Source: Candidatus Micrarchaeota archaeon
GTDB taxonomy: Archaea; Micrarchaeota; Micrarchaeia; Anstonellales; Bilamarchaeaceae
Direction: 5' to 3'
Length of the DNA: 64,000 bases
NCBI GenBank assembly: GCA_043821365.1
Contig: JBDRCX010000002.1
Span: forward strand, 142,875-206,874
In this document: positions 3,207 to 52,382 of the stretch, piece by piece
Layout of the letters: each line of letters opens with the position of its first letter
How positions within the stretch are numbered: position 1 is the stretch's first letter
Notes under the pieces: generated by a model
The model's input: the letters and a program-made list of their open reading frames with translations, nothing else
Database searches by the model: none
Told to the model about the DNA's origin: nothing
Made by a program: the position numbers and the translations under genes

Positions 3207-3308
3207 ATATCAATTATAAACCACTACATTATTTAATGATTAAAATGAGTTTTTCCTCACCTTCATATTCTAGAAATGTTTATAATATCTTGAAATCTAT
3301 TACTTATT

Positions 3309-9218: not shown

Positions 9219-10151
9219 ATGAAAATCTCCATAGCGGAATTGAAAAACAATTCCGACTGTCGCGAACAAATAGCAGTTCGCTCCAAGCCAGAATGGCTTA
9301 AAGTTACAAGACCCAGAGGAGATGAAGTTGCTTTGTTTAATCGAGTGAGTACAGTTGTAAAATCAAATAATCTACATACAGTCTGTGATGAAGCAAGATG
9401 TCCAAATCGTTCTGCCTGTTGGAGTTCTGGTACAGCTACCTTTATGATTTTGGGAGATACGTGTACTAGATATTGTAAATTTTGCAGTGTAAAACATGCA
9501 AGAGAAGGCAATCCTATTGATGAAACTGAATCAGAAAGACTTGCAAAAGCATCAGCAGGGCTTAGGCTTGGTTATGTTGTTATAACCTCAGTTGATAGGG
9601 ATGATCTTCTTGATCGCGGGGCAAATCATTTTGCCAAATGTATTTCTGCAGTTAAATCAAAAAATCCAAATGCAAAAGTTGAAGTTTTAACTCCTGATTT
9701 TGATGGCAATAAAGACTTGATCAAAGTTGTTGTTGATTCGAAGCCAGATGTTTTTGCACATAATGTCGAAAGTGTTGAGAGGCTTGAAACCATACGTGAC
9801 ATAAGGGCAAAATACAAACGCTCACTCGACGTTCTTAAAATAGTAAAACAAATCGATCCAAACATGATAACAAAAAGTTCAATTCTTCTTGGTGTCGGGG
9901 AAAAAGAAGAAGAAGTTTTAGCAACACTCAGAGATCTGCGTGAAGTTGGTGTCGATGCAGTGGTACTTGGACAATATTTACAACCATCCAAACAAAATCT
10001 TCCAGTTAGTGAGTATGTTACTCCAGATCAATTCAAATTCTATGCTAAAAAAGCTAAAGAATTAGGATTTAGATTTGTTGTTTCTGAACCATTTGCAAGA
10101 ACTTCCTACAAAGCAGAGCATATTTTCAAAGATTCTGAATCTCATATTTGA
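9219..10151 (+). CDS. lipA: Lipoyl synthase
   Basis: [18 protein letters not shown] (CX4CX5C), CTRYCKFC (radical SAM), [14 protein letters not shown]; ATG 9219 lies ~22 nt after a TTTAAA box. Confidence 0.95.
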
Positions 10152-42636: not shown

Positions 42637-45543
42637 ATGTACCAACGTTTAGAGATTACGACTAAAAATCATATTAAAGATGTTCAGGGAGATCAACTTA
42701 AAGACAAATTGAAAAAAGATTTGAATCTTGATACTATCTGTCGTTTTATTGACGCATATAATCTTGCAGAAAAACTTTCTGACGATGAATTACTAACTCT
42801 TGCAAATGAGGTTTTTACTGATTCAATTACGCAGGAGTACTCAGTTCAAGAACCATTTTTCAAGGATTATTGGAGGATTGAGGTCGGTATGCTCCCAGGA
42901 GTTACTGACAATATTGGTCACACTGCATCAGAGGCAATAAAAGATAGATTTGGGAGAAATGTTGATGTTTACTACTCACGGATGTATGCAATAAACGGAG
43001 CAATTGATGAAGTTTTGTGCGAACAAATTGCAGCAATGCTTCACAATCCTCTTGTTGAGAAATTTAATATTTATCCTCCTGGTGAAGATACAAAACCTTA
43101 TCTCCCGATAGTCAAAATACCTCACGAACCAACTGTGCAAAAGATAAGTTTGCACATGGGCGAAGAAAGATTCAAAGCATTGGCAAAGGAAAGATTGCTC
43201 TCATTATCTTATGAAGAATTTGAAGCGATTAAACACTATTTCAAATTAGAAAAAGTAGTTAATGCACGTAAAAGGGTTGGCCTTGATAATAAAATAACTG
43301 ATGTTGAACTTGAAGCTTTGGCCCAAACCTGGAGTGAACATTGCAAACATAAAATTTTCAATGCAAAAATAAGTTATGAAGAGAATGGAGAAGTGCATGC
43401 AATAGATTCAATTTTCAAAACATTTATCCGCGGTGCTACTGAACAGGTGAAAAAACCATATATTGTTAGTGTGTTCAAGGATAATGGCGGCATAATCAAA
43501 TTTAATCACGAATATGATGTTGCAGTTAAAGTTGAAACTCATAATGCTCCATCAGCACTTGACCCATATGGCGGTGCTTTGACCGGTGTTCTTGGTGTTC
43601 AAAGAGACATAATGGGAACTGGTATTGGTGCAAATCCAATTGCAAATATCGATGTTCTGTGTTTTGGTCCATTAGATGCAAAGAAAGAAGATGTGCCTAA
43701 GGGTGTTTTACATCCATCAGTGATAGCTAGTGGAGTTGTAAAAGGGGTTGAGCATGGCGGAAATAAAATGGGCATCCCAACCATTAACGGTTCTATTATA
43801 TTTGATAAAGATTACACATGTAGGCCATTGGTATATTGCGGAACAATAGGTTTAATGCCTTCAAAAATTAATGAAAAAAGAACTTCTGAAAAATCAATTG
43901 AACCCGGCTATCTAGCAGTTATGGTTGGAGGCAGAATAGGAAAAGATGGTATTCATGGTGCCACATTTTCATCAATGCAAATGGATGCTTCAACTCCGCA
44001 AAGTGTTGTACAGATAGGCGATCCAATCACCCAGAAAAAAATGTTGGATTTTATACTTCAAGCAAGAGATAAAATGCTTTATGAAGCCATTACTGATAAT
44101 GGTGCGGGTGGACTTTCCTCAAGTGTTGGGGAACTAGCCCAAATAAGTAATGGTTGTGAAATCTATCTTGATAAGTGCCCATTGAAGTATTCTGGTCTTG
44201 ATCCATGGGAAATTTTGGTTTCAGAATCTCAAGAAAGGATGTCACTTGCAGTAAAACCAGAAAAACTCGATGAAATCTCAGAACTTGCAAAGGTTTATGA
44301 TGTTGAATTGTCAGTTGTTGGTAAGTTTACAGATTCAAAAAGATTTCATATTTTCTACAATGATAAAACTGTTGCATATCTTGACATGAAATTTTTACAT
44401 GATGGTTTGCCACAACTAAAACTAAGTGCATCCTGGAAAAAACTAATTTTCCATGATCCTGATATTGGTAAATTCTATCCAGAAGATGTTTTGAGAAAGT
44501 TACTTTCCTCGCCAAACATAACTACTAAAGAAAATGTTATCAGACGCTACGATCATGAAGTCAAAGGAATGAGTGTCATTAAGCCAATAATGGCCGGTCC
44601 AAATGATGCAGCTGTTATAAGGCCGGTTTACAATTCTAAAGAAGGTCTAGTAGTTTCTCATGGAATCTGCTCAAAATATGTCCAAGATGGGTATTCTATG
44701 GCTGCAATGGCATTTGATGAGGCTGTAAGAAATGCAATTGCAGTTGGAGCTAAATTTGGTTATTTAGCATGTTTAGATAACTTCTCTTGGCCAGATCCAG
44801 TAAAATCTGCTAAAACACCTGATGGAGAACAAAAACTAGGTAATTTAGTAAGATCATGCCTGGCACTTTATGATTGCGCAACAAGTTATGGCGTCCCAAT
44901 AATATCTGGCAAAGACAGTATGAAAAATGACTACTATTCAGCAGGGAAGAAATATTCAATCCCACCAACACTTCTTGTTACTGTTGTAGGTAAAATTGAC
45001 AATATTTCCAAATCAGTTAGTTCTGAATTCAAAAACCCAGGGGACATAATCTACGTTCTCGGAACAACGAGAGATGAGCTAGGAGGCAGTGAATTCTATC
45101 GTTTATTCGGTGGTATCGGTAATGATCACCCCCAGTTATACATGGATGAACATATACCGTTATATAAATCATTTTCATCTGCAATTGAAGAAGGACTTGT
45201 TGCATCTGCACATGATGTATCAGATGGAGGGCTTGCAATTGCATTTGCAGAATCATCACTTGGTTATAGTCTTGGTGCAGAAATCGATCTTTCAAAAATA
45301 CCAAAAACAACTGAGGATATTATTTCGCTTTTATTCTCTGAGAGTGCAGGTAGGTTCGTAGTAAGCGTGAAACCAGAGAATGCTGAAAAATTTGAGAGAG
45401 TAATGCACAAGACAGCATTTGCAAAGGCAGGGAGAGTAAGAGGGGATAAAAGATTCATAATGAAAGTCAATGAAGAAACTATCGTTAATGATTCAATTAT
45501 TGATATTCGGGAATTCTATCTTAAGGGTGTAAAAATCACATAA
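42637..45543 (+). CDS. purL: Phosphoribosylformylglycinamidine synthase, PurS-like-fused PurL without glutaminase domain
   Basis: WSEHCKHKIF, KVETHNAPS, GRIGKDGIHGATFSS, DNGAGG, SESQERM, GKDSM, SAHDVSDGG; ~190-aa N-terminal extension. Confidence 0.93.
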   Translation: MYQRLEITTKNHIKDVQGDQLKDKLKKDLNLDTICRFIDAYNLAEKLSDDELLTLANEVFTDSITQEYSVQEPFFKDYWRIEVGMLPGVTDNIGHTASEAIKDRFGRNVDVYYSRMYAINGAIDEVLCEQIAAMLHNPLVEKFNIYPPGEDTKPYLPIVKIPHEPTVQKISLHMGEERFKALAKERLLSLSYEEFEAIKHYFKLEKVVNARKRVGLDNKITDVELEALAQTWSEHCKHKIFNAKISYEENGEVHAIDSIFKTFIRGATEQVKKPYIVSVFKDNGGIIKFNHEYDVAVKVETHNAPSALDPYGGALTGVLGVQRDIMGTGIGANPIANIDVLCFGPLDAKKEDVPKGVLHPSVIASGVVKGVEHGGNKMGIPTINGSIIFDKDYTCRPLVYCGTIGLMPSKINEKRTSEKSIEPGYLAVMVGGRIGKDGIHGATFSSMQMDASTPQSVVQIGDPITQKKMLDFILQARDKMLYEAITDNGAGGLSSSVGELAQISNGCEIYLDKCPLKYSGLDPWEILVSESQERMSLAVKPEKLDEISELAKVYDVELSVVGKFTDSKRFHIFYNDKTVAYLDMKFLHDGLPQLKLSASWKKLIFHDPDIGKFYPEDVLRKLLSSPNITTKENVIRRYDHEVKGMSVIKPIMAGPNDAAVIRPVYNSKEGLVVSHGICSKYVQDGYSMAAMAFDEAVRNAIAVGAKFGYLACLDNFSWPDPVKSAKTPDGEQKLGNLVRSCLALYDCATSYGVPIISGKDSMKNDYYSAGKKYSIPPTLLVTVVGKIDNISKSVSSEFKNPGDIIYVLGTTRDELGGSEFYRLFGGIGNDHPQLYMDEHIPLYKSFSSAIEEGLVASAHDVSDGGLAIAFAESSLGYSLGAEIDLSKIPKTTEDIISLLFSESAGRFVVSVKPENAEKFERVMHKTAFAKAGRVRGDKRFIMKVNEETIVNDSIIDIREFYLKGVKIT

Positions 45544-45633
45544 CGATTTTTACTTAATAATGGAGTGAAACAACGTTTCACGACAGTCGCGAAGTTTTTA
45601 CTTCGCAACAAAATAAGGATTTTTATGAGGTGT
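45544..45633 (+). repeat. Twin-hairpin leader cassette, copy 1 (argS leader)
   Basis: GTGAAAC-AAC-GTTTCAC (45565-45581), GACA, GTCGCGAAGT-TTTT-ACTTCGCAAC (45586-45609), AAAATAAGGATTTTTATGAGGTG; aligns with reverse complement of 50401-50492. Confidence 0.85.
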
Positions 45634-45678
45634 CGAACGTTGTTCGACTTAATAAAAATAAGGATTTTTATGAGGTGT
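45610..45678 (+). repeat. Perfect 24-bp direct repeat flanking a 7-bp hairpin
   Basis: AAAATAAGGATTTTTATGAGGTGT at 45610-45633 and 45655-45678; GTCGAAC-GTT-GTTCGAC at 45632-45648. Confidence 0.9.
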
Positions 45679-45683
45679 GGAAA

Positions 45684-47498
45684 TTGCTTAGCGAATTAAA
45701 AAAAGAAGTTGCATTGCTTACCAGCGAAGCTGCCAATCTGTCAGTTGATGAAGCAATTGGCTTTGTTGAACTTGGAAAAATGGGGGATCTATCTAGTAAG
45801 GTTGCATTTGCAGTTTCTCAAAAGGAAAAAAACAATCCAACTGTGATTGCGTCTGAACTCGTGAAGAAAATCAAACCAAATAAAAATTTTTCTAAAGTGG
45901 AAGCAACTGGTCCGTATGTAAATTTCTATCTAAGTGATCATGCATATTCCAAGATTCTTGTTGAAATTCTTTCTAAAAAAGAAGATTTCGGGAAAAGCAA
46001 AAAGAAAAAAGATAAGGTCGTGATAGAATTTCCATCAGTTAATCCAAATAAACCTTGGCACATTGGTCATCTGAGAAATGCACTTTTGGGAGATTCAGTT
46101 GCAAGAATTCTTGAATTTGATGGTTATCAGGTAGAAAAGATAGATTATATTGATGATCTTGGACTTCAGGTGGCACAAAGTCTTTGGGGGTTCTTGAATT
46201 ATGATTCCAATCCCAGTGGTAAATTTGACAATTGGTTGGGGCATCAGTATGTTGGCATTGCTAAGAAATTCGAAGAAGATAAAACAATTGTCGAAGGAGT
46301 GAGAACTGTATTAAAATCAATGGAAGATGGGAAAGACGAGATTGCCAAAAAAGGCAGAGAACTTGCAGAAAAATGCGTTGCAGCTCAATATGAAACTGCG
46401 TTTAATTTTGGTATTTATCATGATGTTTTGATTTTTGAAAGTGATATTCTCCATACTATTTTTGATGATGGCATCGCTTACATAAAGAAGAATGATGCTG
46501 TTGTTCTTGAAAAAGATGGTAAGAATTCTGGTTGTTGGGTAGTCAAATTAAGTGAGGAATTTGAAAAAGAATTCGGCAAAATGGAAAACCCAGATAAAGT
46601 TCTTATACGAAGTGACGGGACTGCTGTTTACACAGGTAAAGATATCATTTTTCATTTATGGAAATTTGGTAAGTTGAAAAATTTTCTTTACGAACCATTC
46701 ACCAAACAACCAAATGGCAAAATGTCATATAAAAGTTCATCTTCTGGAAAAGAAATGGATTTTGGTAATGCATCAATTGCAATAAATGTTATTGGTGTTG
46801 AACAAAAATATCCACAACGAGTTATTGTTGAAGTCTTAAAACGTTTGAATTTCAATGAAGAAGCCAAAAATCTTTATCATTTATCATACGAGCATGTTGG
46901 TCTTCCAGAAGAAAAGTTTTCTGGGAGAAAAGGAACCTGGGTTGGGTTTACTGCCGATGAGCTTCTAACAGAGGCTCAATCTCGTGTTATGGGAAAGATT
47001 AGACTTGATACTACTGATGATGAAAAAAAACAAATCGCAAAAATAGTTGGGGTTGCAGCAATCAAATTTTCGTTCTTAAGGAATGGCTCAGAAAAAAGGA
47101 TAACGTTCAAGTGGGAAGATGCACTTAATATGGAAGGTGACTCTGGTCCCTATCTTCAATATGCATTTGTAAGAACAAATGGAATTCTGAAAAAAACAGA
47201 TGAAAAACCAGTTGTTGAAGAACTAAATTTCAACGAACAAGAAAAAAAACTGATTAAAAAAATGGCACAACTCTCAGAGATAGTTGCAAGAAGTTCAAAA
47301 GAACGTGCACCTCACCATGTTACTCAGTATAGTCTTGAACTTGCTGCTGATTTTAGTTCTTTTTATACTACCTCACCTGTCTTAAATTCAGAAGATAAAA
47401 AAATAATGAAAAATAGGCTTGCAATTGTATCTGCAACTGCAATTGTTCTGAAAACATCTCTTGGTTTGCTTGGTATTGAATGTCCGGTACGAATGTAA
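45684..47498 (+). CDS. argS: Arginine--tRNA ligase
   Basis: IEFPSVNPNKPWHIGHLRNA (HIGH), RSDGTAVYTGKD, FSGRKG, EGDSGPYLQYAFVR; TTG 45684 after GAGGTG SD preferred. Confidence 0.96.
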   Translation: MLSELKKEVALLTSEAANLSVDEAIGFVELGKMGDLSSKVAFAVSQKEKNNPTVIASELVKKIKPNKNFSKVEATGPYVNFYLSDHAYSKILVEILSKKEDFGKSKKKKDKVVIEFPSVNPNKPWHIGHLRNALLGDSVARILEFDGYQVEKIDYIDDLGLQVAQSLWGFLNYDSNPSGKFDNWLGHQYVGIAKKFEEDKTIVEGVRTVLKSMEDGKDEIAKKGRELAEKCVAAQYETAFNFGIYHDVLIFESDILHTIFDDGIAYIKKNDAVVLEKDGKNSGCWVVKLSEEFEKEFGKMENPDKVLIRSDGTAVYTGKDIIFHLWKFGKLKNFLYEPFTKQPNGKMSYKSSSSGKEMDFGNASIAINVIGVEQKYPQRVIVEVLKRLNFNEEAKNLYHLSYEHVGLPEEKFSGRKGTWVGFTADELLTEAQSRVMGKIRLDTTDDEKKQIAKIVGVAAIKFSFLRNGSEKRITFKWEDALNMEGDSGPYLQYAFVRTNGILKKTDEKPVVEELNFNEQEKKLIKKMAQLSEIVARSSKERAPHHVTQYSLELAADFSSFYTTSPVLNSEDKKIMKNRLAIVSATAIVLKTSLGLLGIECPVRM

Positions 47499-47500
47499 TT

Positions 47501-47530
47501 TTGTTCACTACATTGCCTCGTGGTGAACAA
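47501..47530. terminator. Hairpin between convergent argS and beta-barrel gene, possible bidirectional terminator
   Basis: TTGTTCACTAC-ATTGCCTC-GTGGTGAACAA, 11-bp stem with one G.T wobble. Confidence 0.5.
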
Positions 47531-47545
47531 CCCAACAATATGAAA

Positions 47546-48235
47546 TCAAAACGTTTTAGATACAAATCCACCAAGATTCCATCCGAATGTATCATCACTT
47601 GAGTTCGCATGATTTCCTGTTTCTGTTAAGTCAACTGCAGCTCCAAATCCAAAACCATCCAGACTGATACCAACACGTACTCTCTGTGTGCTCCAAATAT
47701 GTCCGCTTGCATCTAGATCAGAAACATTCTCAATTTTGGTAAGAAGTTCTATTGTTTCACTAAGTGCTGGAGAATAACTTAATGCAGTTAAAAGTTCAAG
47801 ATATGGTTTACTGTCCAATCCTATTGTGGCAAGATTATATGCGCTAAAATCGCCTGCTTTAATGAAATGTTGCAATCCTGCTCTTGGAATAGGTGTACCT
47901 CCAATTAATTGAATTTCACCTACAGCATCCAAACCATCTGTTAATTTTATGCTTAAATCTGCCAAACCAAAGGAACTTATGGTGCCAGTGTAATCCATTG
48001 ACGGTCTTACTCTAAAGAATAAACCTAGTTCATCTGTGATTTTTGCTGATGCTTTTATGTCAACCACAGCGCTTTTATGGCCAGCCATAAATTCAATGGA
48101 ATTAGCCTGAGCTGGTTTTGGTGCAGCCAGCATAAGTCCAGATACAAGTACTGCGCTGGTTACAACTTTTGCTAACTTTCTTGCCACTTGCTTTGTTTTT
48201 CCCCACATTCTTCCTGTTCTGTTTATCATTTCCAT
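47546..48235 (-). CDS. Secreted all-beta protein, probable 12-stranded outer-membrane-type beta-barrel
   Basis: Signal peptide ending PAQA, ~12 amphipathic strands with alternating hydrophobic residues, C-terminal WNLGGFVSKTF; ATG 48235 with AAGGTGGG SD. Confidence 0.6.
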   Translation of the reverse strand: MEMINRTGRMWGKTKQVARKLAKVVTSAVLVSGLMLAAPKPAQANSIEFMAGHKSAVVDIKASAKITDELGLFFRVRPSMDYTGTISSFGLADLSIKLTDGLDAVGEIQLIGGTPIPRAGLQHFIKAGDFSAYNLATIGLDSKPYLELLTALSYSPALSETIELLTKIENVSDLDASGHIWSTQRVRVGISLDGFGFGAAVDLTETGNHANSSDDTFGWNLGGFVSKTF

Positions 48236-48353
48236 ATTCCCACCTTCTACAACAATTCCACACATTCAAGTTATTTATTATCTTTTAGTTTTTTTTACTA
48301 AGAAACCCAAAAATTTATAAATTATTTTAGGTTAATTAGCAAATATTGGTTTT

Positions 48354-49331
48354 ATGATAAAATTAGATAAAAAAAACAAACAATTGCTTTCTCTTCTTTA
48401 TATGGATTCACGAATGAGTTTTGTTCAACTCGGAAAGAAGCTCAAACTCAGCAGTAGTAGTGTTGAAAGAAGATTAGTCAAGCTCCAAGATGCCGGTATC
48501 GTTTCACTATTATTTGCAGATGTCAATCTTCTAAAATTAGGTTTCAAATCCTATAGAATTTATCTTAAGTTTGATGCAATGAATGAAATTACTGAAAAGG
48601 AAATTCTGACTCTTTTTGAAAACCATCCTAGAACTGTGTGGGGCGTGGTGTGCGAGGGTGCATACGATGTGTTATGGAGGATAATTGCAAAAAACGAGAT
48701 AGAGGTTGAAGATGCAGTTCATTTGATAGTTGATAAATTTGGAGAACATATAACTGAAAAAACAGTAATAACTACAACCTACCAAACCTATCTTTCTTGG
48801 AATCGTGCATTGGGTGGAGAAAGACATCCTGAATTACCGTTAGAAAAAATAACTCCAACCCACGATGTCGATAAAAAAGATATGGCTATTTTAGTCTCAT
48901 TATATCATAATTCCAGAGCAACAACTGTTGATATTGCAAGAATAGTTGGGTTGACACCTGATGCAGTTAATTACCGTATAAAAAAACTTATGGAGAATGA
49001 GTTTATTCTTGGCTATACTGCTTGGTTTGATGCTAAAAAACTTGGTTTTGAATACTACAAACTTTTGATAAACTTTAGAAGTATCACACGTAAAAAGGAA
49101 AAACAATTTCTTGATTTTTGTCTTGAACATGATAATGTTATTTTTTTGAATAAAACTATCGGAAGTTGGGATATTGAGGTTGATATTCTTGTTGAAAATG
49201 CAGTTGAGCTTCATAGATTCATACAAGAAACTAAAACTAAATTTGGTGGGATAATCGGAAACCATAGCTACATTTCTGCTATTGAAGAAAGAATGCTCAA
49301 TCCGATTAGGGGAGAATCACCTAAGCCCTAA
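48354..49331 (+). CDS. Tandem (double) Lrp/AsnC transcriptional regulator
   Basis: Two HTH-RAM units: LDKKNKQLL..DSRMSF..LGKKL and VDKKDMAIL..NSRAT..IARIVG; GAYD and GSWD effector-domain motifs. Confidence 0.9.
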   Translation: MIKLDKKNKQLLSLLYMDSRMSFVQLGKKLKLSSSSVERRLVKLQDAGIVSLLFADVNLLKLGFKSYRIYLKFDAMNEITEKEILTLFENHPRTVWGVVCEGAYDVLWRIIAKNEIEVEDAVHLIVDKFGEHITEKTVITTTYQTYLSWNRALGGERHPELPLEKITPTHDVDKKDMAILVSLYHNSRATTVDIARIVGLTPDAVNYRIKKLMENEFILGYTAWFDAKKLGFEYYKLLINFRSITRKKEKQFLDFCLEHDNVIFLNKTIGSWDIEVDILVENAVELHRFIQETKTKFGGIIGNHSYISAIEERMLNPIRGESPKP

Positions 49332-50064
49332 TCCATTTCATTGTTTTTTCAAAATCTCTCTTTATATTGAATTTGGCAAAATATTTCAAAATAATTGAAA
49401 TATCTCTTTCTAAAAATTTTTCTGCATTTGGATGCCTAAGAATAACTCCCTGGCCAAAGTCAATCAAGAACGGCTGTGGACCAATCATAATATTATATTC
49501 ACTTAGATCCGCATGTACAAGTCCTGCTTTGTACATCTTTTTTATATCCTGTAGAAGGGAATCCAAATCAGCTTCCCCGTGCAATGGGCCAACCATATTC
49601 AATGTTGGGTATGGAAGTTCACCTTCACCCAAAAATTCCATAACCACAATTCTTCCTATCATGTAATATGGTTTTGGTGCTCTTACATTTGCTTTTTCAC
49701 AAATTTCAAGGTTTTTATATTCTTTATGTGCGAATGCCTTAACAATATCTCTAGGATTTGATTTAATTCTTGAAAATCTTGGGTCAGCATCAAGGTATTC
49801 GTCTTTTCTAAAAAAAGGTGCAGTTTCAGTTTTGTACATTTTTACTGCAACATAATTTCCATCAGGTGTGGTTGCACGAAAAACATTTGCTTCCTTACCT
49901 GTTGAAATTGGGTAGTCAACTGTTTTCAGTATTCCCTTTTTCATTAATTTTTGAAGGTCTAATAGGGCGTTCTTGTCAAAGACATCACTCTCAATTTTAA
50001 ATCGTTCTTTGAGTTGATAGTCTTCTTTCAGAGGCTTTTTTCTTTTTGATACCTGCCGTGCCAT
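49321..50064 (-). CDS. rio1: RIO1 family serine kinase
   Basis: ISTGKEANVF, AVKMY, VHADLSEYNI, IDFGQ. Confidence 0.93.
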   Translation of the reverse strand: MARQVSKRKKPLKEDYQLKERFKIESDVFDKNALLDLQKLMKKGILKTVDYPISTGKEANVFRATTPDGNYVAVKMYKTETAPFFRKDEYLDADPRFSRIKSNPRDIVKAFAHKEYKNLEICEKANVRAPKPYYMIGRIVVMEFLGEGELPYPTLNMVGPLHGEADLDSLLQDIKKMYKAGLVHADLSEYNIMIGPQPFLIDFGQGVILRHPNAEKFLERDISIILKYFAKFNIKRDFEKTMKWIRA

Positions 50065-50067
50065 AAA

Positions 50068-50400
50068 TCAGATGTGCCCCTCTTCTTTGAGTATTCTGGC
50101 CTGGAGTGGGAAATATCTCCAAACAATATCTCCTTTTGAATCCCCCTGGATTTCAAATGGTTTTACAATAACTACGTCTCCTTCCTTTACCCATATTTTA
50201 TTTTTCAGCTTACCTGGGATTCTACACATTCTTTCTTTTCCATCCTTACAAACTACTTTCATCCTTGAGCCGCCCATAAGGCCTAGGACAACACCAAGAA
50301 CTTCTCCTTCCTTGGGAAATTTTAATCTTCGTCTTTCTTCTTCTTTATTGAATGGTGTTCTCTTTGCACCAGGTTTTCTTCCGCCTCGGTTATACAACAT
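50068..50400 (-). CDS. eif1a: Translation initiation factor aIF-1A
   Basis: RRLKFPKEGEVLG, CKDGKERMCRIPGKLKNKIWVKEGDVVIV, KGDIVWRY; start ATG 50400 or TTG 50397. Confidence 0.95.
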   Translation of the reverse strand: MLYNRGGRKPGAKRTPFNKEEERRRLKFPKEGEVLGVVLGLMGGSRMKVVCKDGKERMCRIPGKLKNKIWVKEGDVVIVKPFEIQGDSKGDIVWRYFPLQARILKEEGHI

Positions 50401-50492
50401 ATCACCTTGTAAAAATTTCCTAATTTTGTTGCGAAGCAAGGCTTCGCAACTGCCGTGAAATGTCATTTCACAACATTACTAAGACAAAATTG
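50401..50492 (-). repeat. Twin-hairpin leader cassette, copy 2 (aIF-1A leader)
   Basis: Minus strand GTGAAAT-GAC-ATTTCAC, GGCA, GTTGCGAAGC-CTT-GCTTCGCAAC, AAAATTAGGAAATTTTTACAAGGTGAT-ATG. Confidence 0.85.
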
Positions 50493-50625
50493 AAACAATT
50501 TTGTCACCTTATCAAAATGAAATTTTTATAAAAACAAAATGTTTGCACATTTTGTCATCTTATCGTAAATTCTATTCAAATTTACGATTCTGAAAAAATG
50601 TCCGCACATTTTTTTTCACCTTATT
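50483..50625 (-). repeat. Three degenerate ~30-nt palindromic repeat units carrying SD-like AAGRTGA plus an extra hairpin
   Basis: Plus-strand units acaaaattgaaacaattttgtcaccttatc (50484), acaaaatgtttgcacattttgtcatcttatc (50534), aaaaaatgtccgcacattttttttcaccttatt (50593); ATCGTAAATT/AATTTACGAT hairpin 50562-50588. Confidence 0.8.
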
Positions 50626-51029
50626 GCCTTTCGGGCACCACATGCCTCACAAATCAGATTACGTACTCTGTGGCCAAGATCCTCAATATGAGTATCAGGA
50701 CGATTACACTCTTTACACATTACAAATTTCTTAATAAACTCTTCTAGTTTTGTGTTAACAATATCCCCAGCTAATTTCCTCTGTAAAATAAGTCTATCTC
50801 CCTGTATTTCAACTGGAACTGCAAGTTCTTTTGACAAATATTTCGAAAGAACTTCTGGTTCTCTTCTTATCTTTTCAATAACTATTTTGAAATTCTTAAG
50901 GATTGTTTTGTTTCCCTCTGTGAAATATTCAAATTTAGGCATTTCAAAACGTTCACCACTGGATGTGGTCTTTGGTAATTTGGCATACAAGCCATCTAGT
51001 AACTGTTCATAGTTTGACTCAGAACTCAT
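50616..51029 (-). CDS. eif2b: Translation initiation factor aIF-2 beta subunit
   Basis: YEQLLDGLY, RFEMPK, GNKTILKNF, CKECNRPDT, CEACGA; ATG 51029 preferred. Confidence 0.95.
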   Translation of the reverse strand: MSSESNYEQLLDGLYAKLPKTTSSGERFEMPKFEYFTEGNKTILKNFKIVIEKIRREPEVLSKYLSKELAVPVEIQGDRLILQRKLAGDIVNTKLEEFIKKFVMCKECNRPDTHIEDLGHRVRNLICEACGARKAIR

Positions 51030-51131
51030 AAAATGTTCACAACCACTATTTCCATTCCTCAACCAATAGTTGATTCTGGATAGTTAAGACACTATATGTC
51101 TCAGTATAATAACAAACGCATTGTTTTAAAA

Positions 51132-52382
51132 TCAAGTTCCTTCCTGCCAACTAGTCAAATATTTCATCTGTTCTTCAGTAAGTTTGTCTTTTTTGACATT
51201 CATAACTTCAAGTTGAAGTTCTGCAATATTCCTATCTATCTCTTCAGGTAGGACTATTACCCCGGGGTTGAGTTTACCCTTATTTTTCACTAAAAATTCG
51301 CAGGCAAGACTCTGTCCAGCAAAACTTGTTGCCATAACCTCACTTGGATGGCCTTCTGCAGCTGCCAAGTTTATAAGTCTTCCTTCACCACAAAGATAAA
51401 TCTTTTTTCCATTAATGTCATACTCATCTAAGAATGGTCTAATCTTTCTCTTTTTACCTGCTTTTGAAATAGATTCAACATCTATTTCACAATCAAAATG
51501 ACCAGAATTTGCAAGAATTGCACCATCTTTCATATTTTTTACGTGCTCTAATCTTATTACATGTTTGTCCCCAGTTACTGTGATAAAAATGTCGCCTATT
51601 TTTGCAGCTTCCATCATTGGCATAACAAGATAACCATCCAGAGTTGCTTGCATTGCTCTAAAAGCATCAACTTCAGTTACAATAACATTTGCACCCAGTC
51701 CTTTTGCTCTGAGTGCAACTCCCTTTCCACAATCTCCATATCCGCCTACAATGAAAGTTTTTCCAGCAATAAGTGTATTTGTTGCTCTTAGTAAACCATC
51801 TATTGAAGACTGACCTGTTCCGTAATAATTGTCTAACAAATGTTTTGTTTTATTGTCATTAACTGCAATCACAGGAATTTTCAATGCATTGTCTTTTGCC
51901 ATTGCCCTGAGACGTATTACTCCAGTGGTGGTTTCTTCACAGCCGCCTATTACTTTAGATAACTTTTCTGGGTGTTTTGTGTGAAGCGCACTAATCAAAT
52001 CACAACCATCATCAATGGTGATGTCCGGATTACGTGCCACCACCTGTTCTATGTATTCATAATATTCTTCTTTACTTTCTCCTTTTTTTGCAAAAACATT
52101 TATCCCTTCCTTAGCCAAAGCAGCAGCAACATCGTCTTGTGTTGAAAGTGGGTTACAGCTTGCTATTGCTACTTTTGCCCCACCTGCAATTAATGTTCTT
52201 ACTAATACTGCAGTTTCTTTTGTAACATGTAATGCAAGTCCAATGGTGAGTCCTGCAAATGGTTTTTCTTTCAGGAACCGTTCTTTAATTTTTCCCATTA
52301 TTTGCATATTTCTTTCTGCATACTCAATGTTTAGCATTCCCTGTTCTGCTAGCTTTTCATCTTTTACTGCATAATCAGACAT
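51132..52382 (-). CDS. ahcY: Adenosylhomocysteinase
   Basis: SCNPLSTQDD, DDGCDL, EETTTG, DNYYGTGQS, GYGDCGKG, EGRLINL, GHPSEVM. Confidence 0.97.
   Translation of the reverse strand: MSDYAVKDEKLAEQGMLNIEYAERNMQIMGKIKERFLKEKPFAGLTIGLALHVTKETAVLVRTLIAGGAKVAIASCNPLSTQDDVAAALAKEGINVFAKKGESKEEYYEYIEQVVARNPDITIDDGCDLISALHTKHPEKLSKVIGGCEETTTGVIRLRAMAKDNALKIPVIAVNDNKTKHLLDNYYGTGQSSIDGLLRATNTLIAGKTFIVGGYGDCGKGVALRAKGLGANVIVTEVDAFRAMQATLDGYLVMPMMEAAKIGDIFITVTGDKHVIRLEHVKNMKDGAILANSGHFDCEIDVESISKAGKKRKIRPFLDEYDINGKKIYLCGEGRLINLAAAEGHPSEVMATSFAGQSLACEFLVKNKGKLNPGVIVLPEEIDRNIAELQLEVMNVKKDKLTEEQMKYLTSWQEGT

Follow-up and report, generated by a model that had tools for sequence, protein, structure and literature searches.

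In a 64,000-nt stretch of a contig from Candidatus Micrarchaeota archaeon, hereafter called the window, the genes for arginyl-tRNA synthetase (argS) and the initiation factor aIF-1A are preceded by look-alike leader cassettes. Each cassette consists of two separable parts, a twin hairpin of 49-50 nt (hp1-GACAGTC-hp2, where hp1 and hp2 are its first and second hairpins) and an AT-rich leader module that carries a Shine-Dalgarno (SD) sequence. We consider it probable that the likeness of the two leaders is due to a selfish, non-autonomous palindromic repeat that is confined to one genus, together with a separate SD module; the repeat would be of the same kind as REP (repetitive extragenic palindromic) sequences, the bacterial interspersed mosaic elements (BIMEs) and the Rickettsia palindromic elements (RPEs). 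As one subfamily of the twin hairpin would have moved with or between module copies, the resemblance between the argS and aIF-1A leaders would reflect the shared descent of repeat DNA and not a shared regulon.

The two copies were located at window positions 45553-45632 on the forward strand (copy 1, from CTTAATA to AGGTG) and 50483-50403 on the reverse strand (copy 2). An earlier note, made from the letters of the window, had put their identity at roughly three-quarters; the mean column identity is 82% in a MAFFT alignment, and a BLAST search with copy 1 against the whole source genome (labelled G000) recovers copy 2 at 79% identity, with an E-value of 1e-13. Both copies fold one 7-bp hairpin and one of 7-10 bp. 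The stems of hp1 are GTGAAAC/GTTTCAC in copy 1 and GTGAAAT/ATTTCAC in copy 2, and those of hp2 are GCGAAGT/ACTTCGC and GCGAAGC/GCTTCGC, respectively; the paired swaps that the note had seen at the loop-closing pairs are indeed double changes in both hairpins. It was also right that both copies are in sense orientation and have AGGTG at their 3′ end, and that a duplicated segment, an exact 24-nt repeat (45610-45633 = 45655-45678), lies between copy 1 and the argS start; the AGGTG stands 5-6 nt ahead of a start codon. The ortholog of copy 2 in the related genome G015 is 88% identical, with one more compensatory change in hp2.

The leader module is a 30-nt unit of the form CTTAATAAAAAT-N4-ATTTTTATGAGGTG, built from AAAATAAGRATTTTTATGAGGTG and a 5′ CTTAATA, and its uninterrupted copies read CTTAATAAAAAT. 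In G000 it stands without a twin hairpin before the genes for the thermosome, pyrI, a ferritin-like protein and a 116-aa acidic open reading frame (ORF), as well as at one more locus, and the distance from module to start codon at the loci free of the twin hairpin is 5-6 nt. It also forms the proximal unit before argS, and in G024 it precedes rps27e. A GGTG word and an AT-rich hairpin lie ahead of each module copy, and modules can stand in tandem. The 45-nt unit of hairpin and module next to argS (45633-45677) is identical in 44 of 45 nt to a unit in the thermosome leader (G000:C6:108378-108423), a likeness that points to very recent copying between unlinked gene starts.

The module carries an SD of the working type, since GGTG placed 5-6 nt ahead of start codons, as seen at 257 of 1127 long ORFs with 5 nt as the commonest spacing, is a genuine signal throughout the genome; the GAGGTG of the second module, 6 nt before the TTG of argS, has the spacing typical for this genome. 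As a promoter of leaderless mRNA, with a TATA-like word that would put the transcription start site after the SD, the module appears less likely. Given the genome-wide GGTG signal and a thermosome promoter word that lies farther upstream, the module is treated here as a probable leader.

A model of the whole cassette (R1) finds only five strong copies in the genus, before argS and aIF-1A in G000, before aIF-1A and the thermosome gene in G015, and before a parvulin-type peptidyl-prolyl isomerase (PPIase) in G024. In the alignment of these five composite copies the twin hairpin, of 49-53 nt, always lies between CTTAxTA and AAAAT, and what the weaker R1 matches all have in common is hairpin-GACAGTC-hairpin. 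The cassette had been proposed to be a REP-like element, or a MITE (miniature inverted-repeat transposable element), with its own ribosome-binding site; the REP-like nature is supported and the site of its own is not, as the SD belongs to the separate and commoner module.

The twin hairpin is a member of a repeat family with a narrow host range. After a pattern scan, a family model (R2) was built from 29 copies, and at E<1e-6 it finds about 21 twin hairpins in G000, on both strands. Matches to R2 occur in 21 of the 40 species of the genus, with 0-31 per genome (lower bounds); among the candidates scored in 144 genomes from the phylum's other genera and families there was none, and these genomes also served as a negative control. 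The family consensus reads CATG-NN-(stem-loop)-GACAGTC-(stem-loop)-GCCAT, and the leader subfamily ends in CAAC. On either strand, each half runs from a GTC tag through a stem of 7-10 bp, which usually contains GAA/TTC, and its loop to a CCAT(G) tail; two such small units in inverted order, with their tags overlapping centrally as GAC-A-GTC, make up the twin hairpin. The loops measure 3-9 nt and the elements 49-54 nt, all strong copies are dimers with the tags inside, and an array with a 54-nt period at C6:72454-72566 has the alternating arrangement. The paired structure is retained in the family: in an alignment of 31 copies 90.8% of cells pair, while shuffles reach 68% and slid partners 51% at most, and both-side changes occur at 12 of 14 pairs. 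These counts are biased towards the structure, as the seeds were picked for perfect stems and the alignment was fitted to the model. A generic excess of hairpins was discarded as an indicator: perfect hairpins with stems of at least 6 bp are no more frequent than expected, at 3248 against about 3113 in order-2 Markov simulations, and adjacent hairpin pairs are enriched 2.4-fold (198 against 77-88 simulated). Such a test is too coarse, and better guidance comes from the E-values of the covariance model and from the control outside the genus.

Copies of the twin hairpin lie in varied surroundings. A survey of 20 loci in G000 places two in mid-gene, three in antisense 10-28 nt inside the longest frame of the downstream gene, three beside tRNA genes, and the remaining ones, including the two sense leader copies, between tandem or convergent genes. 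Three insertions into genes were confirmed by alignment. The Asp/Orn carbamoyltransferase of G015 has an insert of 16 aa (48 nt) that is absent in the G024, G000 and G002 orthologs; a metallophosphoesterase of G000 has one of 18 aa (54 nt) directly after its GNHD motif, with none in G015, G002 and G012 and a diverged insert at the same site in G024; and a DUF460 protein of G000 has one of 17 aa (51 nt), absent in the 92%-identical G015 ortholog. All three inserts are multiples of three in length and free of stop codons, in either orientation, and the two leader copies measure 50 and 49 nt. These in-frame, stop-free lengths, a pattern like that of the RPEs, argue that the in-gene copies are translated rather than spliced.

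The same lengths bear on the idea of an RNA-level mobile element or intron, a substrate of the broad-specificity epsilon2 splicing endonuclease that would be excised from mRNA and tRNA precursors and would spread by reverse splicing. In favour of such an element, the endonuclease of Micrarchaeota is undemanding in its substrates, and odd tRNA introns are numerous in this group (PMC3239211). However, no bulge-helix-bulge could be drawn by eye at the borders of the leader or in-gene copies, the tRNA introns that we read hold a different type of hairpin and none has the GACAGT core, and the in-frame lengths of the inserts, as compared with 50 and 49 nt for the leader copies, fit translation and not splicing. 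We therefore regard an intron as most improbable.

Orthologous leaders differ in their content between species whose proteins are about 80-90% identical, through gain or loss of the cassette. At argS, G024 has no spacer, as the purL stop lies in GGTGTAA and the TTG follows 4 nt later, and the hairpin X that overlaps the purL stop in G000 is absent there; G015 has one hairpin and one module, and G000 has two modules and the twin hairpin. At aIF-1A, G002 and G003, along with several more Micrarchaeota, have the two genes overlapping without a spacer, with the aIF-2beta stop inside AAGGTGATATG; a single hairpin unit is present in G024, and both G015 and G000 have a spacer of about 215 nt filled with hairpins that include the twin hairpin (about 240 nt between two AAGGTGA words). 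The thermosome leader holds one module in G024, two in G000 and none in G012, G003 and G002, and in G015 it holds one module and a twin hairpin, the second stem of which has a different sequence in the same register. The PPIase leader has a module and twin hairpin in G024, a different family copy elsewhere in the leader in G015, and neither in G000. This pattern of presence and absence indicates that the cassette has no fixed link to argS or aIF-1A, nor to translation genes.

Two further observations concern the start of the aIF-1A gene. The aIF-2beta/aIF-1A junction (50403-50618, reverse strand) has grown from an overlap to a spacer by the stepwise addition of hairpin units, each ending in A(A/G)GRTGA. 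On contig 9 of G012 (G012:C9, L115), a 54-nt twin hairpin of a different kind was seen by eye, in frame and free of stop codons, directly after the start ATG TTG GCA of aIF-1A; it is laid out as TTGACCGC..GCGGTCAA followed by ATAAAAAAAT-GGTG-ATTTTTTTTAT, and a second ATG arises at the foot of the hairpin with the GGTG loop.

The distribution of copies is also what decides on the proposal, made in the earlier note, of an undescribed cis-regulatory RNA for translation genes, that is, of a dedicated leader RNA (riboswitch, T-box-like element or protein operator) that co-regulates them. The two translation genes in the window, the sense orientation and the covarying stems are what such a regulator would lead one to expect. 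But copies lie on both strands, in genes, antisense, beside tRNA genes and after genes, with the same core about 20 times in unrelated places, the kind of placement that the note itself had named as grounds for refutation; the composite cassette also precedes the thermosome gene (G015) and the PPIase gene (G024), and not translation genes only. Conservation with argS, as expected of a regulator, was not found, the argS orthologs of the two nearest species having no cassette (there is no twin hairpin in G015 and G024). Among the unpaired parts, only the flanks and the short linker GACAGTC do not vary, and a scan of positions 44000-52000 against Rfam gave nothing relevant at E-values up to 10. 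The small reading frames of the leaders have other origins. The ATG-NNG-TGA triplets pointed out earlier as a mini-ORF are present at 45560-45568 and 50476-50468, but they are a by-product of the GTGAAAC stem of the leader subfamily, and other family copies read ATGGAGCGAAC or ATGTACTTGAAC at this position, without a stop. The Arg-containing upstream ORF at 45625-45699 is not specific to argS, as it arises from the duplicated ATGAGGTG word that is common to every module and is also found in those before the thermosome gene and pyrI. A dedicated regulator thus appears very unlikely.

The leader copies may nevertheless be present in RNA. A TATA-like word, TTTTTATAAAAA, lies at 50534-50523 before aIF-1A and resembles words upstream of G000 tRNA genes; as judged from its sequence it may act as a promoter, and the aIF-1A transcript would then start near hairpin X. 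The promoter word of the thermosome gene is conserved 85-170 nt upstream in all species, well ahead of the modules. From these two words, the hairpins are probably part of 5′ untranslated regions (UTRs). When compared with shuffled sequences, the two leaders fold with z-scores of −4.4 and −6.8, and the SD and start codon of aIF-1A are mostly open in the centroid structure.

Repeat units could on this basis have been put to use as generic, exapted RNA elements in the 5′ UTR, where they might protect the 5′ end from exonucleases, provide a processing site that splits the former operons purL/argS and aIF-2beta/aIF-1A, or tune access to the SD. This would agree with the placement of the five composite copies, all in sense and at a fixed site just before the SD of a highly expressed gene, with the paired changes that conserve the stems, with folding much better than that of shuffled sequences, with the upstream thermosome promoter word, which puts the modules inside a transcribed leader, and with the hairpin found directly before the aIF-1A SD in other Micrarchaeota too. 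On the other hand, close relatives have the same genes without the element in the leader, and most family copies lie outside leaders, some of them antisense or in genes, so that we consider exaptation as the explanation of the likeness to be unlikely.

As a test of mobility, a link to a REP-associated tyrosine transposase (RAYT/TnpA) had been proposed; it was examined and not found. PF01797 (Y1 transposase) is present in 8 of the 40 genomes of the genus. It is absent in the high-copy genomes G015, G012, G024, G049 and G041, three zero-copy genomes (G044, G045 and G046) have it, and among the five highest-copy genomes only G000 has such a gene. The genomes compared are metagenome-assembled genomes (MAGs) of 81-90% completeness. 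In MAGs of this completeness, the distribution leaves a partnership of the REP/RAYT type unsupported, and the Y1 transposase was rejected as the mobiliser because it does not co-occur with the repeat across the genus. About 130 nt upstream of the sole Y1 gene of G000 lies a twin hairpin in which the stems are of the GAAC type and the linker is GGTCC. One copy in G018 is near a transposase gene, at about 600 nt and with another ORF between.

The insertion sites themselves have short stretches in common with the element. In G024, where the carbamoyltransferase site is empty, its sequence CTTGCCATGG equals the 3′ terminal consensus of the family, and on both sides of the metallophosphoesterase insert stands a direct repeat of 13 nt, which codes for the conserved GGIE. 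Flanking direct repeats of 5-15 nt overlap the consensus end of the element itself, and repeats of at least 8 nt between a copy's own flanks were found for 8 of 33 copies, compared with 5.9% of cross-pairings. We read these repeats as homology at the insertion site, and not as the result of copying hp2 from the target. The latter was rejected, as it looks true at the metallophosphoesterase and a few other loci only; the hp2 stem of that locus recurs at the unrelated window position 9229-9287, and GCCATG is all that the DUF460 insert has in common with its flank. We infer that copying is guided by short homology, through template switching or gene conversion, with no dedicated transposase. In the leader subfamily the module itself would provide the homology, and the constant site of the insert within the module would follow from this. 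At G018:C1:63939-64072 (L133 1452-1585), a family copy stands between 21-nt direct repeats (ATGGCGCGCAGTTCMAGGTA) about 113 nt apart, far longer than the usual target duplication.

For the selfish repeat that we favour, the following course can be envisaged. The twin hairpin would have multiplied to about 20-30 copies in a few species, and the module would supply the SD to several highly expressed genes, duplicating within and between leaders. One twin-hairpin subfamily would have settled at a fixed point of the module and moved with or between module copies to new gene starts, by homology-guided copying at sites that resemble the end of the element or the module, rather than by means of a dedicated transposase. 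The leader copies would be transcribed in the 5′ UTR, with their hairpins tolerated, and these may modestly stabilise or modulate the mRNA.

Several points weigh against this explanation. The single orientation and fixed site of all five composite copies, just upstream of the SD, are not needed for a purely selfish element, and an RNA-level function of the leader copies is possible. The hairpins are kept far better than neutral decay predicts, so that something, be it selection or the copying process itself, maintains them, and the pairing counts given above are biased in favour of structure. The length of the direct repeats is variable (5-15 nt, and 21 nt at one G018 locus) and they are absent at many copies. 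A one-period template-switch model fails at the junctions of the two leader copies, where gene conversion between modules is needed. Finally, the copy counts outside G000 are lower bounds, as only part of the candidates was scored.

The source genome has 1.2 Mb in 6 contigs, with 36% G+C and a completeness of 87%, and its aIF-1A relatives are all from Candidatus Micrarchaeota MAGs. The public sequencing runs that contain the stretch are DNA runs only, from groundwater and biofilm metagenomes, with no RNA run among them. Pfam domains around both sites are those of PurL, ArgRS, aIF-1A and aIF-2beta. The features of the locus are listed in the table.

Table. Features of the argS and aIF-1A leaders and related elements (window positions unless a G000 contig is given)
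Feature	Position	Strand	Basis and details
Third twin-hairpin copy in the window	9229..9287	-	R2 56.7 bits; antisense to the next ORF, 28 nt into its longest frame
Hairpin X of the argS leader, GTAAAAATC-loop-GATTTTTAC	45529..45553	+	Read from the sequence; purL stop (45541-45543) within the loop, GGTG directly ahead of the hairpin
5′ part of leader module 1, CTTAATA	45553..45559	+	Alignment; twin hairpin inserted directly after
Twin-hairpin element copy 1, 50 nt	45560..45609	+	R2 61.2 bits, E 3e-16; hp1 45565-45571/45575-45581, linker GACAGTC 45582-45588, hp2 45589-45595/45600-45606
3′ part of leader module 1, ending GAGGTG	45610..45632	+	Exact 24-nt repeat begins here
45-nt unit, hairpin TCGAAC-GTT-GTTCGA and complete module 2	45633..45677	+	Match to thermosome leader
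argS (arginyl-tRNA synthetase)	45684..47498	+	Pfam tRNA-synt_1d, DALR_1, Arg_tRNA_synt_N; start TTG at 45684, 6 nt past the second GAGGTG
aIF-1A gene	50068..50400	-	Pfam eIF-1a; start ATG at 50400-50398
3′ part of module before aIF-1A, ending AAGGTG	50403..50427	-	Alignment
Twin-hairpin element copy 2, aIF-1A leader, 49 nt	50428..50476	-	R2 54.4 bits, E 3.5e-14
Hairpin X (GACAAAATTG-ttt-CAATTTTGTC) and CTTAGTA, 5′ part of module before aIF-1A	50477..50505	-	Read from the sequence
Remainder of the expanded aIF-2beta/aIF-1A spacer	50506..50618	-	Three more hairpins, repeated A(A/G)GRTGA words
Sole Y1 (IS200-type) transposase gene of G000	G000:C3:96659-97006 (L105)		GC-rich hairpins of another kind at both ends

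An assembly artefact or chimera at the repeats, which the earlier note had named as a way in which its reading could fail, would be conceivable because short-read contigs break at the 24-nt duplicated segment. However, copy 1 is spanned by contigs that cover 45149-45648, 45000-45620 and 45467-45617, from runs of three studies, and copy 2 by contigs that cover 50055-50536 and 50358-50508, in all cases with zero differences, and homologous copies are present in sister species. The agreement of contigs from three independent studies at each copy rules out an artefact for practical purposes, and we assign it a negligible probability. Elsewhere, 47037 is joined to 48303 in contigs of three runs, which skip 1265 nt and have 13 other letters at the junction; as its matching side is only 21 nt, it may be a repeat or belong to another organism. 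At 45538-45544, in the loop of hairpin X near the purL stop, contigs of two runs of one study each lack 3 nt, which is minor population variation at low depth.

Some observations on other hairpins were made along the way. In GC-rich relatives among the other Micrarchaeota (L074, L076, L079-L084), a hairpin of the type stem-TTTTT-N2-3-AAAAA-stem stands directly before the aIF-1A SD, and the stem-TTTTT-N-AAAAA-stem type also fills long tRNA introns of G000. ARAGORN finds only 19 tRNA genes in G000, 13 of them with introns of 29-178 nt; many were probably missed owing to non-canonical or multiple introns, which are known for ARMAN-type archaea. The tRNA genes at G000:C6:327241-327293 and C6:368811-368880 (Thr and Pro according to ARAGORN) have a near-identical 5′ leader, in which a CTTGAAC-type hairpin is followed by a TTCGCGAAAATTC..GAATTTTCACGA hairpin that ends at the tRNA 5′ end.

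Among known repeats, the closest described kind appears, by analogy of layout, to be the CGTC-tagged REP superfamily, which includes RPE-4 and RPE-6 of Rickettsia and dRS3 of Neisseria (Di Nocera et al. 2013, BMC Genomics 14:522, PMC3733652). These repeats have a CGTC tag with the variants TGTC and CCTC, a stem of 8-9 bp, a loop of 4-5 nt and an unpaired CCA tail; they are mostly inverted dimers, have in-gene copies (RPE-4, RPE-6) and have no dedicated transposase (PMC3733652). The twin hairpin is similar to them in its tag ending in GTC, its stem that often starts with A-T pairs, its short loop and its CCA tail, and also in its inverted dimers, heterogeneous stems and loops, copies inside genes and lack of co-occurrence with a Y1 transposase. 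It differs in its host, an archaeon of the DPANN group, whereas the survey reports bacterial phyla only (PMC3733652), and in its nearly invariant linker GACAGTC, which places AGTC beside hp2 and, on the other strand, TGTC beside hp1, with CGTC unseen. Its inward, overlapping tags form a ′TT′ dimer, an arrangement called rare for CGTC repeats (PMC3733652), its stems are of 7-10 bp and its loops of 3-9 nt, and most copies have the tail (G)CCAT, with CAAC as a second type in the leader subfamily. Sequence homology with the bacterial CGTC families is neither demonstrated nor expected.

The RPEs are palindromic elements of about 150 bp; inserted in frame into conserved protein-coding genes, they are translated and add peptide segments to the proteins (reviewed in PMC10969869). 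The twin hairpin resembles them in its in-frame, stop-free insertion into genes whose orthologs have no insert, in the three cases established by alignment, but it has 48-54 nt, occurs in either orientation and is mostly intergenic, whereas an RPE encodes a conserved peptide. With REPs, BIMEs and REPINs it shares short tagged palindromes, inverted pairs, alternating arrays and a lineage-specific copy number; unlike REPINs, it has no cognate single-copy Y1 transposase and only tens of copies, and its halves have different stems, so that no single long hairpin is possible. Archaeal MITEs, such as SM1-4 of Sulfolobus and those of Halobacterium and Haloquadratum, are also non-autonomous repeats (PMC10969869), of 100-300 bp, with terminal inverted repeats that match a parent insertion sequence (IS) and a fixed target duplication; for the twin hairpin, of about 50 nt, we found no parent IS and no fixed duplication length. 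T-boxes, ribosomal protein leaders and riboswitches have in common with it the 5′ leader position at translation genes and the covarying helices, but the twin hairpin is not conserved with the gene, also occurs outside leaders and in antisense, and is without a relative in Rfam.

A wider role can be imagined, to which we give only a small chance, namely that hairpin units may need no transposase for their spread and may be mobile building blocks from which gene starts are made. Replication stalled at hairpins would set off template switching or gene conversion wherever a site resembles the end of the element, and the units would carry or duplicate the modules with their SD. The coupled, overlapping gene pairs purL/argS and aIF-2beta/aIF-1A would in this way gain long structured leaders, and possibly promoters of their own, and tRNA leaders, trailers and introns would be seeded by hairpin units as well.

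The twin hairpin is a new, genus-restricted family of small tagged-palindrome repeats in a DPANN archaeon, and in the literature available as open-access text we found no description of such repeats in Micrarchaeota. A REP/RPE-like palindromic family is thereby documented in DPANN archaea; to our knowledge, selfish repeats are not expected to thrive in their tiny, streamlined genomes. A tempting false lead is also removed, as covarying twin hairpins before two translation genes are here read as repeat DNA and not as a riboregulator. The family provides three clean in-frame insertions into conserved enzymes and a turnover of 5′ leaders at the species level, and in the annotation of Micrarchaeota MAGs its elements explain odd peptide segments, contig breaks and inflated intergenic spacers. 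If copying is indeed guided by homology, it would offer a simple natural model of how palindromes spread without a transposase and remodel gene starts.

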